Origin: a virus
Lineage: Duplodnaviria > Heunggongvirae > Uroviricota > Caudoviricetes
Length of the DNA stretch: 4,582 nucleotides
Virus record (IMG/VR): IMGVR_UViG_2531839237_000015
Direction: 5' to 3' (one strand)
How positions within the stretch are numbered: the stretch's first letter is position 1; each line of letters opens with the position of its first letter. Made by a program: the position numbers and the translations under genes. This document shows positions 490 through 4,582 of this stretch, in pieces. A model generated the notes under the pieces. It made no database searches, was not told the DNA's origin, and was given only the letters and a program-made list of their open reading frames with translations.

Positions 490-762
490 TCATCTTGCTG
501 TCAGTTGTTTGGATTTACGGTAGCCTGCCGCGTAAAGAGCTACATTTGGAAGACAAGTTGAGCCTTCATATTTTCTGGTCAACGTTGTCAGTGTTATTAC
601 TTCTGCTCTCATTGCTGGTTTGCGTTTGCATTGTAAGACCACTCGTGATGGGGTTGGCCTGTGTAGTTTGTCGGAGCTAATCGCCTCCTGACTTTGCAGG
701 TTTGCGCGACGAGCTCTACGGCGAGAAGCTGCGGTGCCTTTAAATTCTGTTTTTCTGGACAT
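490..762 (-). CDS. N: N-like transcription antitermination protein (P22 gp24-type), 90 aa
   Basis: Arginine-rich motif near the N-terminus (KGTAASRRRARRANLQ) and C-terminal ...PNVALYAAGYRKSKQLTAR, which closely matches the P22 gene 24 C-terminus (...PGVALYAAGHRKSKQITAR) as recalled. Start chosen at the internal ATG (762..760), which has GGAGG 5 nt upstream, rather than the track's longer ORF start at 834. Confidence 0.75.
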   Translation of the reverse strand: MSRKTEFKGTAASRRRARRANLQSQEAISSDKLHRPTPSRVVLQCKRKPAMRAEVITLTTLTRKYEGSTCLPNVALYAAGYRKSKQLTAR

Positions 763-860
763 AGATTCCTCCCGAATAAACTTTGGCGATGCAATCTCGA
801 AGCTCCTCCTGAGACGGTTGCTTCGGCATTGCATCCCACAGCTTATGTGGTTGGGTGATC

Positions 861-905
861 TGGCTTTTCAGCCACGTAGTCGAGAGTCGACGTTGTTTAA
901 AGAGC
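861..905 (-). promoter_or_regulatory. Candidate nutL site (boxA-like plus boxB-like hairpin) in the leader of the N-like gene
   Basis: Minus strand reads GCTCTTTAAACAA (plus 893-905), close to the boxA consensus GCTCTTTAACAA. It is followed 18 nt later by UGGCUGAAAAGCCA (plus 861-874), a 5-bp stem with a GAAA loop resembling lambda boxB. A second small hairpin GTCGA-ctc-TCGAC lies between them. Confidence 0.4.
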
Positions 906-951
906 CTGCCAGTCTGTTCCATTTGGCTTCCAGCGTCCTGCTGATGGTTAA

Positions 952-980
952 ATAGTACGATATGTACTTCACTTGGTCAA
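952..980 (-). promoter_or_regulatory. Candidate pL-like promoter for the N operon
   Basis: Minus strand TTGACC (plus 975-980), 17-bp spacer, TACTAT (plus 952-957), about 185 nt upstream of the N-like ATG. The spacer contains the inverted repeat AGTAC-N5-GTACT (plus 954-968). No lambda-type operator is visible. Confidence 0.3.
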
Positions 981-1159
981 TACAATTTGTTCTAAAACGG
1001 GGCGTTTTTTTACAACGCTTTGTATTTAATAGTATTGTTTTTTAGCGTGGGTGTATTGCCTCGGCGATGTAAGGAGAGATCAGAATTGCGTTGTTTAGTG
1101 AGTTGTATCTATTTATTTTCCAATAAATACAATTGGTTATGTGTTTTTTTGGGCGAGAG

Positions 1160-1187
1160 GAAAAGAAAACCCGGCATGGAGGCCGGG
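1160..1187 (-). terminator. Rho-independent terminator for leftward transcription, downstream of the 173-aa cargo gene (position analogous to lambda tIMM)
   Basis: Minus strand CCCGGC-ctccat-GCCGGG (plus 1170-1187) followed by TTTTCTTTTCC. Confidence 0.55.
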
Positions 1188-1194
1188 TTGATGA

Positions 1195-1317
1195 TTAGCG
1201 GTGTGGCCTTGAGCGATAATGCTCACACACATGTTCAAGATTTCCATGCCTTATCCGTTCATAGGCATTCACATGAACTTCTCGATCGAATTGGTCATTC
1301 AAATTGTATGTAGACAT
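1195..1317 (-). CDS. Possible small ORF (40 aa, MSTYNLNDQFDREVHVNAYERIRHGNLEHVCEHYRSRPHR) ending immediately before the terminator
   Basis: ATG at 1317..1315, stop TAA at 1197..1195, then the terminator hairpin 8 bp further on. RBS is weak (GAGAAA). Found by hand translation; it is below the ORF-track length cutoff. Confidence 0.2.
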   Translation of the reverse strand: MSTYNLNDQFDREVHVNAYERIRHGNLEHVCEHYRSRPHR

Positions 1318-1490
1318 CTGTGTTTTCTCATATTGGCGGCAGCCCTACAACCGCTTGAAAAAATGTACCAGACGCGCTAAGGTTACATCGCAAATATTGT
1401 GTACCTTAACAAGGGCTCCTTTTGGAGGCTCTGGTTAAACAGCATCAATGTCGGACTGGGGAGTTGGACATTGTGCTGAATGCTTTTGCA

Positions 1491-2012
1491 TTATTGAGGC
1501 CGAACGTAAACCTTCAGAATTGAAGAGATGCGTTCGGCTTCTTCGTTTGTGATATCGTTAGGAATGCCTTTAATCGTTACTGTAACCCCTGATTCAGGTC
1601 GAAGAACTACTGGAAGATCATAGGTATGAAGTGCATTAGCCTTGCCTTCGACTTTTGTTGGTTCGCCAGTCAAATCTTTTTCCTCACTGGATTCTTTGTC
1701 AATCGGAGTGTATGGGATTTCTTCACCAGACTGGAAAGCTACAAACTTTTTGATTGCACTTTCCATGCGGCTTTTATATGCAGTAATGCTGCTGTCGCTA
1801 GGCTTCGGCTCAGTTGCGTTGATGTATCGCTCGGCAAGCTCATTCACATCAAGCTGAGTAACATCACCCATTTCCTCTTCTTGGACTACCGTTAAGAGGC
1901 GAGCGGATGAGTTTTTTAAATTTCGAGCGGTGGCCTCCTTCATTATGTTCAGCGACATAAGCTCTTCAAGGAAGTCCTTGAATGCCTGCACGCTAACGTT
2001 TGACTTTGCCAT
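1491..2012 (-). CDS. Hypothetical protein, 173 aa, non-lambda cargo gene occupying the rexA/rexB slot downstream of cI
   Basis: Clean ATG-initiated ORF, the only long ORF between cI and the N operon. Predicted helical N-terminal region, acidic Ser/Glu/Lys-rich linker and a compact C-terminal region (LHTYDLPVVLRPESGVTVTIKGIPNDITNEEAERISSILKVYVRPQ). No similarity to RexA, RexB or any family I can name. Flanked by its own promoter-like and terminator elements. Confidence 0.7.
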   Translation of the reverse strand: MAKSNVSVQAFKDFLEELMSLNIMKEATARNLKNSSARLLTVVQEEEMGDVTQLDVNELAERYINATEPKPSDSSITAYKSRMESAIKKFVAFQSGEEIPYTPIDKESSEEKDLTGEPTKVEGKANALHTYDLPVVLRPESGVTVTIKGIPNDITNEEAERISSILKVYVRPQ

Positions 2013-2112: not shown

Positions 2113-2139
2113 AATAAAAAAGGCCGCACCTCTGCGACC
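2113..2139 (-). terminator. Rho-independent terminator for leftward transcription, about 375 bp downstream of the cI stop
   Basis: Minus strand GGUCGCA-gagg-UGCGGCC (7-bp stem including one G-U pair) followed by UUUUUUAUU. The stem is weaker on the plus strand (C-A mismatch, poor T-tract), so it is orientation-specific. Confidence 0.45.
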
Positions 2140-2513
2140 TTTCATCTCCTAAATCTCTTTTCTCTTACCTAAAGAAACAGCAGGCTGGGTCAGCCCTAAC
2201 AACTTCAAGTGCATCGGTCAGAGAAAGCTCCGTGCTATACAGGTGTTATTTCATATCTTTTTGCATCCAATAAATTTTCCATCTGTCCAGAGAGCGGATG
2301 CACTTGATTCTTGTTGATGGCAGGACGTTTTTTCACCTGCCTCACCCTGCCATACAGGACGCTGCTCACCGATATCTATCGTCCGGTCATTGATGTTATA
2401 GACAATATCCAGATCATTACGGATATACTCAGATGGCCTTATGCTTTCAATGAATAGATGAACTTCTTTTTGACCGCTTGATACTCATGGCCATTAAACT
2501 CCATCTATCCTCT

Positions 2514-3230
<717 letters not shown>

Positions 3231-3237
3231 TTAAATC

Positions 3238-3303
3238 TATCACCGCAAGGGATAAATATCTAACACCGCGCGTGTTGACTGCTTTACCTCTGGCGGTGAT
3301 AAT
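3238..3303. promoter_or_regulatory. Right operator OR3-OR2-OR1 with divergent promoters pRM (leftward, cI) and pR (rightward, cro)
   Basis: OR3 TATCACCGCAAGGGATA (3238-3254), OR2 TAACACCGCGCGTGTTG (3261-3277), OR1 TACCTCTGGCGGTGATA (3285-3301). pR -35 TTGACT (3275-3280) and -10 GATAAT (3298-3303). Near-identical to lambda OR. Confidence 0.92.
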
Positions 3304-3318
3304 GGTTGCATGTACTAA

Positions 3319-3528
<210 letters not shown>

Positions 3529-3535
3529 ATAACCC

Positions 3536-3567
3536 CGCTCTTACACATTCCAGCCCTGAAAAAGGGC
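3536..3567 (+). promoter_or_regulatory. nutR (boxA and boxB); the rho-dependent tR1 region follows, about 3570-3640
   Basis: boxA CGCTCTTA (3536-3543) and boxB GCCCTGAAAAAGGGC (3553-3567), exactly as in lambda nutR. Confidence 0.85.
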
Positions 3568-3624
3568 ATCCAATTAAACCACACCTATGGTGTATGCATT
3601 TATTTGCATACATTCAATCAATTG

Positions 3625-3670
3625 TTATCTAAGGAAATACTTACATATGGTTCGTGCAAACAAACGCAAC
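3625..3670 (-). promoter_or_regulatory. pRE promoter region with CII binding site (TTGC-N6-TTGC), leftward
   Basis: Minus strand TTGCGTTTGTTTGC at plus 3656-3669, overlapping the first cII codons, as in lambda pRE. Confidence 0.6.
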
Positions 3671-3940
3671 GAGGCTCTACGAATCGAGAGTGCGTTGCTT
3701 AACAAAATCGCAATGCTTGGAACTGAGAAGACAGCGGAAGCTGTGGGAGTTGATAAGTCGCAGATCAGCAGGTGGAAGAGAGACTGGATTCCAAAGTTCT
3801 CAATGCTGCTTGCTGTTCTTGAATGGGGGGTCGTTGACGACGACATGGCTCGATTGGCGCGACAAGTTGCTGCGATTCTCACCAATAAAAAACGCCCGGC
3901 GGCAACCGAGCGTTCTGAACAAATCCAGATGGAGTTCTGA
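3647..3940 (+). CDS. cII: CII transcriptional activator, 97 aa
   Basis: Translation MVRANKRNEALRIESALLNKIAMLGTEKTAEAVGVDKSQISRWKRDWIPKFSMLLAVLEWGVVDDDMARLARQVAAILTNKKRPAATERSEQIQMEF matches lambda CII. True start is ATG at 3647; the ORF-track start at 3587 is an upstream in-frame extension. Confidence 0.95.
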   Translation: MVRANKRNEALRIESALLNKIAMLGTEKTAEAVGVDKSQISRWKRDWIPKFSMLLAVLEWGVVDDDMARLARQVAAILTNKKRPAATERSEQIQMEF

Positions 3941-3962
3941 GGTCATTACTGGATCTATCAAC
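3886..3962 (-). ncRNA. oop: oop antisense RNA with its intrinsic terminator overlapping the 3' end of cII
   Basis: Position is colinear with lambda oop. Minus-strand terminator CGCTCGG-ttgccg-CCGGGCG followed by TTTTTTATT ends near 3886. The exact 5' end is inferred from lambda colinearity. Confidence 0.6.
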
Positions 3963-3972
3963 AGGAGTCATT

Positions 3973-4533
3973 ATGACAAATACAGCAAAAATACTCAACT
4001 TCGGCAGAGGTAACTTTGCCGGACAGGAGCGTAATGTGGCAGATCTCGATGATGGTTACGCCAGACTATCAAATATGCTGCTTGAGGCTTATTCGGGCGC
4101 AGATCTGACCAAGCGACAGTTTAAAGTGCTGCTTGCCATTCTGCGTAAAACCTATGGGTGGAATAAACCAATGGACAGAATCACCGATTCTCAACTTAGC
4201 GAGATTACAAAGTTACCTGTCAAACGGTGCAATGAAGCCAAGTTAGAACTCGTCAGAATGAATATTATCAAGCAGCAAGGCGGCATGTTTGGACCAAATA
4301 AAAACATCTCAGAATGGTGTATCCCTCAAAACGAGGGAAAATCCCCTAAAACGAGGGATAAAACATCCCTCAAATTGGGGGATTGCTATCCCTCAAATTG
4401 GGGGATTGCTATCCCTCAAAACAGGGGGACACAAAAGACACTATTACAAAAGAAAAAAGAAAAGATTATTCGTCCGAGAATTCTGGCGAATCCTCTGACC
4501 AGCCAGAAAACGAAACCAGCGCCGCCTGGGTAG
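3973..4533 (+). pseudogene. O: Replication initiator O, disrupted: lambda-like for about the first 141 codons, then frameshifted by a 23-bp iteron duplication and ending at a stop inside gsk-like sequence
   Basis: N-terminal translation MTNTAKILNFGRGNFAGQERNVADLDDGYARLSNMLLEAYSGADLTKRQFKVLLAILRKTYGWNKPMDRITDSQLSEITKLPVKRCNEAKLELVRMNIIKQQGGMFGPNKNISEWCIPQNEGKSPKTRDKTSLKLGDCYPS matches lambda O. After codon 141 (from 4396) the frame departs from lambda (NWGIAIPQNRG... instead of KQGDTKDTITKEKRKDYSSENSG...). The C-terminal P-interaction domain is absent. Confidence 0.85.
4321..4470 (+). repeat. ori-lambda-type replication origin: five 18-19 bp iterons plus the AT-rich region (lambda has four iterons)
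   Basis: Iterons ATCCCTCAAAACGAGGGA (4321-4338), ATCCCCTAAAACGAGGGA (4341-4358), ATCCCTCAAATTGGGGGA (4365-4382), ATCCCTCAAATTGGGGGA (4388-4405), ATCCCTCAAAACAGGGGGA (4411-4429). Copies three and four are a perfect 23-bp tandem duplication (4365-4387 = 4388-4410). A-rich tract at 4430-4470. Confidence 0.85.
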
Positions 4534-4582
4534 TGGGTATCGATCAAACGCTGGTCGATATTGAAGCGAAAGTGGATGATGA
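4500..4582 (+). CDS. gsk: Internal fragment of inosine-guanosine kinase (Gsk-like), lacking its first ~25 codons and its promoter; continues beyond the right window edge
   Basis: Frame with codons starting at 4503 translates PENETSAAWVVGIDQTLVDIEAKVDDE, which I recall as E. coli Gsk residues about 27-53. Sequence to the left of 4500 is lambda O. Confidence 0.55.

Follow-up and report, generated by a model that had tools for sequence, protein, structure and literature searches.

How does a repressor gene of lambda specificity come to lie beside an early-left region without lambda operators? The question is raised by the IMG/VR virus record IMGVR_UViG_2531839237_000015, of which we analyzed a stretch of 4,582 nt (the window; all coordinates are positions in it). 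According to the listing of its open reading frames (ORFs) and to family searches, from which the gene content is taken, the window holds a lambdoid immunity and early region with the genes N, ORF173, cI, cro, cII and O. We suggest that the mismatch of the left operator (OL) results from mosaicism: most probably a crossover within cI joined a left half of the Shiga toxin 1 (Stx1) phage type to a right half of lambda immunity.

The cI protein of the window (237 residues) differs from lambda cI at four positions, T3A, K71N, R129K and D139G. None of these lies in the helix-turn-helix (residues 33-52), and the recognition helix is identical to that of lambda. To the right of cI, the right operators (OR) OR1 and OR3 are also identical to lambda and OR2 has a single substitution (TAACACCGCGCGTGTTG in the window, TAACACCGTGCGTGTTG in lambda). 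This substitution is common to the thrW remnants of O157, and several intact lambda-immunity prophages keep the lambda base.

For the left side of cI we used a symmetrised 17-bp position weight matrix (PWM) derived from the six operators of lambda, whose sequences were verified against NC_001416. The maximum over 200 shuffles of positions 1-2513 served as null (mean 8.2, standard deviation 2.3, 95th percentile 12.3). With this matrix the lambda operators proper score 14-23 bits, and in the window OR1 reaches 20.7, OR3 18.9 and OR2 16.0 bits. Within 1-2513 no lambda OL site rises above the shuffle null. The best score is 9.4 bits at 580-596, which is inside the N gene, and the stretch 930-1040 stays below 3 bits. 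Three 17-bp sites of the TATCACCGC half-site type over a leftward promoter upstream of N were not found. A weak lambda-like half-site near 1195-1215 (AGCGGTGTGG) was rejected, as it has no score in the scan. A preliminary description of this DNA had claimed a cI DNA-binding domain almost identical to that of lambda, near-canonical OR1-3 and a lack of lambda OL between the N-like gene and cI, and these claims are borne out. The lack of a lambda OL beside this cI is exceptional: in all ten natural contexts of the identical 237-residue cI a lambda-type OL triplet is present upstream of N (15.6-18.6 bits).

It could be argued that lambda cI controls the leftward promoter pL through degenerate or non-canonical sites which escape the PWM. 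Among Stx phages there are repressors with weakly symmetric sites, and the repressor of phage BAA2326, 61% identical to lambda cI, has operators which differ from those of lambda (PMC5977221). This is no direct support, however, and here the recognition helix is that of lambda, the 930-1040 stretch has next to no score, and the identical OL sequence is invariably accompanied by a repressor N-domain of another kind. We regard such hidden sites as most improbable.

What is found instead? By its sequence, the region 763-1490 is a complete early-left control region, with pL, three tandem operators, nutL and the start of N. A predicted sigma-70-type promoter, TTGACC-17-TACTAT, points toward N on the minus strand. 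It had been noted before and was recovered by our promoter scan. Transcription would start at the A at 945 within ATCAGCAGGACGC, a sequence common to the lambda pL transcript start, as judged from positional homology. Tandem dyad-symmetric putative operators cover the promoter hexamers, OL1 lying on the -10 and OL2 on the -35 hexamer. The inverted repeat AGTAC-N5-GTACT at 954-968 belongs to the first of them. In the GenBank record of the Stx1-converting phage AP005153 the cI gene is flanked on either side by three annotated putative operators, and the three on the left are the OL1, OL2 and OL3 of the window. Between pL and the N-family protein (PF25694) lies a putative nut site with a boxA-like element at 893-905 and a boxB at 861-874. 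The core of this boxB, GCTGAAAAGC, recurs at the nutR of AP005153 (locus L003, 6026-6039). To the right of OL3 the window is homologous to lambda, and this stretch (1074-1189) closes with an intrinsic terminator (1189-1168, terminator scan) at the position where the lambda cI-rex transcript ends.

The six OL and OR sites of AP005153 share the motif A-R-T-A-C-N5-G-T-A-Y-T. To avoid circularity we built a second PWM from the three OR sites of this phage alone (TATTACGCTCTGTACTG, ATGCACAATGTGTATTT and AAGTACATATTGTATTT; they lie outside the window), again with 200 shuffles as null. With this OR-only matrix 953-969 ranks first in the whole window with 15.7 bits, above all 200 shuffle maxima, and 978-994 ranks second with 12.5 bits. 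In 3230-3310, no site of this type reaches at least 11 bits; the sites there are the lambda OR1-3. The inverted repeat at the promoter had been described as unrelated. The repeat is indeed present, but it is not unrelated: it is the OL1 of the AP005153 type and one of three sites which resemble the OR sites of that phage.

The operators of this type keep constant company in nature. Donor-type OL and OR triplets (we call the AP005153-like parent the donor) occur together with a cI N-domain of the 231-residue type in ten of ten ORF173 contexts and in six of six IMG/VR relatives, and in these 16 relatives lambda sites are never combined with donor-type OL. The six IMG/VR relatives are 5-8% diverged in the OL region, where the operators are kept and the inter-operator spacers vary. 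The 90-residue N gene is called in all ten donor-type contexts, and in all ten ORF173 adjoins the 231-residue cI. Among the contexts retrieved by the cI or the ORF173 protein there were matched arrangements alone and no hybrid. Judged by its operators, the window would belong to the AP005153-type group by its OL, but it has neither the cognate cI N-domain of the 231-residue type nor OR sites of the same type.

The annotation of AP005153 labels the promoter in its OL region (locus L003, 3435-3462) as "putative maintenance promoter for CI". Its location and direction make this promoter pL, leading toward N, and the label looks like an annotation slip.

The origin of the two halves was traced with BLAST in phage and complete E. 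coli records. Positions 18-2924 are 99.3% identical to AP005153, Stx2 phage II, phage 2851 and the PA-series Stx2a phages, and positions 2516-4513 match, at 99.75%, the prophage remnant of lambda immunity located beside thrW in O157:H7. The mismatches are distributed very unevenly. Against the Stx1 phage there is none in 18-2612 (100% identical) and there are 20 in 2613-2892; the thrW remnant differs at five positions in 2538-2601 and at no position in 2602-4513 (100% identical). This leaves an interval of 11 bp for the crossover, which falls in the part of cI coding for the C-terminal domain. In this domain the parental repressors are nearly identical, whereas their N-terminal DNA-binding domains give no meaningful alignment. 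The joint is in frame and lies within 409 bp of homology with 94% identity. The donor-derived part, 18-2612, takes in N, nutL, pL, the three OL sites, ORF173 and the last 99 nt of cI (32 codons and the stop codon). The preliminary description had attributed the left arm to a different lambdoid lineage than the immunity module. The foreign origin of the left arm stands, 18-2612 being fully identical to the AP005153 group, but the boundary runs through cI at 2602-2612 and not beside an intact immunity module.

Recombination between prophages is documented in O157 (PMC7645076). The genome of O157:H7 TR01 contains both parents with these exact sequences in opposite orientation, its Stx-type prophage being identical over 18-2612. 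A single homologous exchange (an inversion) between the two cI genes of TR01 would make exactly this joint. One further paper is reportedly devoted to inter-prophage recombination in O157. The left end of the window differs: positions 1-17, upstream of the start codon of ea10/DUF2528, deviate from the Stx-phage parent and match the allele of O26:H11 and E2348/69-type prophages and of two IMG/VR contigs. This suggests a further mosaic boundary at 17/18.

We suggest that the arrangement arose and would operate as follows. A crossover in the conserved part of cI which codes for the C-terminal domain joined the halves of two heteroimmune prophages, and lambda OL would be missing left of cI because of this joining. 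The hybrid cI would be lambda-specific because the lambda N-terminal domain was kept to the right of the crossover. It would repress pR and autoregulate pRM at OR1-3, and it would be left without a site at pL. Looping between OL and OR by lambda cI is established lambda biology; here it would not be possible. The AGTAC-N5-GTACT repeat would be the OL1 for the 231-residue repressor of the donor. Then pL, and hence N, would either be constitutive or be under trans-repression from a prophage of donor immunity in the same cell. Since O157:H7 genomes such as TR01 hold both prophage types, trans-repression of pL is plausible. The earlier suggestion of an unidentified second regulator thus has an obvious candidate in the donor cI, which however is not encoded in the window. 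Antitermination should also be affected. The N of the window is of the non-lambda type and is paired with a GCTGAAAAGC-type boxB, and the boxB of nutR is that of lambda. Rightward antitermination would probably fail. The same mismatch is visible in the boxB elements themselves (TGGCTGAAAAGCCA at nutL and GCCCTGAAAAAGGGC at nutR).

Whether pL is silent in a cell would depend on the presence of the second repressor. It is possible that a hybrid arisen in vivo lacks a cognate repressor, that pL is constitutive with N and the left-arm genes on in the "lysogen", and that only the defect of the element makes this tolerable. There is no lambda site at pL, the donor-type cI is not encoded in the window, and O is frameshifted and truncated. 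However, the left arm beyond ea10, which lies outside the window, includes kil in intact relatives, and strains with the lambda-type remnant commonly also have a donor-type prophage which makes the cognate repressor. Unrepressed kil expression is toxic, as established for lambda. We consider constitutive expression of pL rather unlikely. With similar reserve we regard the more specific proposal of a prophage with split immunity in a living strain, in which pR is under its own lambda-type cI and pL obeys only the repressor made by another, Stx-type prophage in the same strain; it may be entertained tentatively and is doubtful.

A regulator encoded between N and cI could in principle replace cI at pL, and ORF173 or a small ORF at 1195-1317 might be considered. 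ORF173 occupies the position of the prophage-expressed rexAB genes and has no assigned function. No match to ORF173 is found in Pfam, NCBIfam, PADLOC and PDB, nor is there a helix-turn-helix or other DNA-binding signature, and as a hidden repressor it was rejected on these grounds. Moreover, all ten ORF173 contexts have a cognate cI with OR matching OL, so that an extra regulator is unneeded. No alternative regulator encoded in cis is evident from the predicted proteins, and we hold this explanation to be highly improbable. A role as an exclusion gene or "moron" expressed from the prophage is conceivable for ORF173, and about 10,900 blocks of the protein-to-contig index list it.

As to whether the window is contiguous in a real genome, the right end deserves attention, where O is fused to the bacterial gene gsk. 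At this joint 15 bp (CCAGCCAGAAAACGA, 4499-4513) are common to both sequences, and 4514-4582 corresponds to nt 90-158 of gsk and is 100% identical to the gsk of TR01 at 570 kb. In TR01 coordinates the joint is of the deletion type and spans about 262 kb. We searched the whole window in 50,697 phage records, 72,556 plasmids and 5,426 complete E. coli genomes, and no record among these phages, genomes and plasmids covers at least 80% of it. The O-gsk joint is absent from the phage, plasmid, complete E. coli, species-representative, IMG/VR and JGI metagenome collections searched. A 45-mer which spans the crossover in cI has no match in species-representative genomes. As marker of the hybrid it was discarded, as it is present in seven non-hybrid IMG/VR lambdoid contigs and hence not diagnostic. 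A crossover-spanning 141-mer which includes single-nucleotide polymorphisms of both parents has no match in viral or metagenome contigs.

Several points weigh against the explanation proposed here. None of the phage, plasmid and complete E. coli records and none of the viral and metagenome contigs searched shows the hybrid arrangement. The left end 1-17 is not TR01-like, and thus the window is not simply a derivative of TR01. The donor-type operators are labelled just "putative" in GenBank, and a binding experiment for the AP005153-type repressor was not found in the literature searched. The OR-only PWM is based on three sites and gives OL3 9.6 bits, a value within the shuffle null; with a six-site PWM OL3 scores 15.4 bits, but this matrix is itself partly trained on OL3.

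The window could instead be a chimera of sequencing, amplification or assembly, in which three real pieces are contiguous in no cell and the operator mismatch has no biology behind it. In a single O157:H7 genome each piece has a 100% identical counterpart at a locus of its own: the Stx-type prophage at 2.707 Mb (minus strand), the thrW remnant at 0.306 Mb and gsk at 0.570 Mb (both plus strand). Both joints are missing from the 5,426 complete E. coli genomes as well as from the collections of phages, plasmids, viral and metagenome contigs and species-representative genomes, and an O-gsk fusion ORF is not on record. The interval of about 262 kb would, by the K-12 map, contain essential genes, which a deletion-type joint would remove. 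Both joints also lie at short microhomologies of 11 and 15 bp, as do template-switch chimeras. Overlaps of this length suit in-vivo recombination as well as a template-switch chimera, but are too short for a mis-join in a k-mer assembly graph. Furthermore, the sequence is free of errors relative to both parents, the joint in cI lies in frame inside a homology of 409 bp and 94% identity which is a natural substrate for recombination, and positions 1-17 match natural alleles of other lineages, suggesting a genuinely mosaic source and not a reshuffled TR01. We judge a chimera to be rather unlikely.

If the joint is real, the window is a clean natural case in which a crossover in the repressor gene uncouples OL from OR. 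Normally both travel together and define the lambdoid immunity group, and OL and OR of different specificity are an uncommon outcome. The process as such is known, namely mosaic recombination among lambdoid prophages; the window is a new instance of it and does not establish a new regulatory principle. A real joint would further mean that the conserved cI C-terminal domain is a recombination hotspot between heteroimmune prophages in genomes of enterohaemorrhagic E. coli, and that remnants can arise with an early-left operon dependent on the repressor of another prophage. Should the split immunity exist, induction or loss of the Stx prophage would directly derepress N, recombination and kil genes of another element, a hard-wired cross-talk between two prophages. 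For annotation it follows that from "lambda cI present" one may not conclude that the element is under lambda-type control throughout. Finally, the comparison lends support to an operator motif whose Stx-phage immunity type is very common but uncharacterised by experiment, because there are six sites in the reference phage and the sites are conserved in diverged relatives.

The features of the window are collected in the table. The preliminary description had spoken of a defective or recombinant remnant, and rightly so: an additional iteron shifts the frame of O, which is also truncated and runs into gsk, and on this reading of O the right arm is dead. The frameshift is due to a 23-bp insertion relative to lambda; O is 100% identical to the O157 remnant and there annotated as frameshifted. 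The insertion lies in the ori region inside O at 4372-4417, where a 23-bp iteron copy (tccctcaaattgggggattgcta) is repeated; the thrW remnant of O157 has the same lesion. Between ORF173 and cI there is no intact ORF at 2121-2513. The DUF3024 gene, of which a decayed homologue is located there, comes after cI in 933W and some of the lambda-immunity prophages. A search with Rfam gave no family at E <= 0.1 anywhere in the window.

Table. Features of the window and of the donor phage AP005153 with their positions and the basis of each assignment.
Feature	Position	Strand	Basis or remark
N-type antiterminator, 90 aa, non-lambda type	490-762	-	PF25694 N_peptide, E=3e-32; phrog_271
Putative nutL boxB hairpin, TGGCTGAAAAGCCA	861-874	-	read from sequence; assigned by position and homology
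Putative nutL boxA-like element, GCTCTTTAAACAA	893-905	-	read from sequence; compare donor nutR boxA CGCTCTTTGTAACAA
Predicted pL	952-980	-	-35 TTGACC (980-975), 17-nt spacer, -10 TACTAT (957-952); promoter scan, 9/12 matches
Putative OL1, Stx1-phage type, TAGTACGATATGTACTT	953-969		overlaps -10 hexamer and spacer; putative operator in AP005153 annotation (offset 2483)
Putative OL2, CAATACAATTTGTTCTA	978-994		overlaps -35 hexamer; putative operator in AP005153 annotation
Putative OL3, TACAACGCTTTGTATTT	1011-1027		putative operator in AP005153 annotation
Lambda-homologous stretch right of OL3	1074-1189	-	87.5% identical to lambda (locus L031, 1409-1527)
ORF173 (ORF b63 in AP005153), at rexAB position	1491-2012	-	phrog_2602, E=3.5e-102, function unknown
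Decayed homologue of DUF3024 gene	2121-2513	-	94% alignment of 2121-4513 to locus L002 covers annotated DUF3024 gene
cI, 237 aa	2514-3227	-	HTH_3 and Peptidase_S24 (Pfam); lambda DNA-binding specificity, DNA hybrid
Crossover interval, 11 bp	2602-2612		mismatches to each parent confined to one side
OR3 (3238-3254), OR2 (3261-3277), OR1 (3285-3301), with pRM and pR	3238-3301		lambda PWM
cro, lambda type	3328-3528	+	PF09048, E=6e-35
nutR boxB, lambda type, GCCCTGAAAAAGGGC	3553-3567	+	pattern match; type not matched to N of the window
cII	3647-3940		family searches
O, truncated and frameshifted	3973-4513	+	PF04492; 23-bp extra iteron
gsk (inosine-guanosine kinase), nt 75-158	4499-4582	+	83/84 identical to MG1655 gsk
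Donor OR sites TATTACGCTCTGTACTG, ATGCACAATGTGTATTT, AAGTACATATTGTATTT			AP005153; outside the window
Donor cI, 231 aa, MDGSSTERNNKDMKMKWYELARSRMKELGITQEKLAEELGMTQGGIGHWLRG...			not encoded in the window

A comparison with lambda itself (pL/OL1-3-nutL-N, NC_001416, 35.4-35.65 kb) reveals the same architecture. In both a sigma-70 promoter has its spacer and -35 hexamer under tandem dyad-symmetric 17-bp operators, the transcript starts at ATCAGCAGGACGC, and a nutL site with boxA and boxB precedes an N rich in arginine; beyond OL3 on the right, the terminator-bearing flank shows 87.5% identity. The specificity is different. The operators of the window conform to A-R-T-A-C-N5-G-T-A-Y-T and are unrelated to the TATCACCGC-type operators of lambda, the N protein belongs to PF25694 and not to lambda N36, boxB differs, and ORF173 stands in place of rexAB. 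The closest relatives are AP005153 ("region V"), Stx2 phage II (AP005154), phage 2851 and the PA-series Stx2a phages, which are 100% identical over 18-2612. These phages, however, encode the 231-residue cI with another N-terminal domain and have OR of the same type as OL, whereas the window continues with the lambda cI N-terminal domain, OR1-3, cro, cII and O.

A further point of comparison is phage 933W (locus L036, 12775-12845), which reportedly has two OL sites. Its oR1 (CGTACTGAAAGTACG) and the OL1 of the window (AGTACGATATGTACT) share a 15-bp symmetric core with GTAC-N5-GTAC, and A4 and C5 are invariant in both operator sets. The repressor N-domains, in contrast, are very different. In the 933W pattern positions 2-5 are G-W-A-C and position 6 is T or C; OL1 fits at positions 2-5 but has G/A at position 6, and OL2 and OL3 deviate further. 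The 933W repressor binds operators with G or A at position 6 poorly (PMC3317979). The common core of the 933W and AP005153-type operators could be convergent or reflect a shared half-site recognition; we do not claim cross-recognition.

A partial precedent for a cI with OR but without a matched OL nearby is the O104:H4 Stx2 phage (BAA2326), also an Stx-type lambdoid phage. It has a lambda-like cI and "no readily identifiable OL or N gene" to the left of it (PMC5977221). In that phage OL and N are missing or replaced by a restriction-modification system, whereas the window has a complete OL/pL/N of another specificity. Recombination of heteroimmune lambdoid phages at conserved flanks is also seen in the laboratory hybrids lambda imm434 and lambda imm21 and in natural cI domain mosaics. 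The N- and C-domains of cI act as separate modules in such lambdoid mosaics, and wild lambda-immunity phages are on record (EF120457-61). The viable immunity hybrids, however, swap the whole OL-cI-OR-cro block, whereas in the window the point of exchange lies inside the block and splits OL from its repressor.

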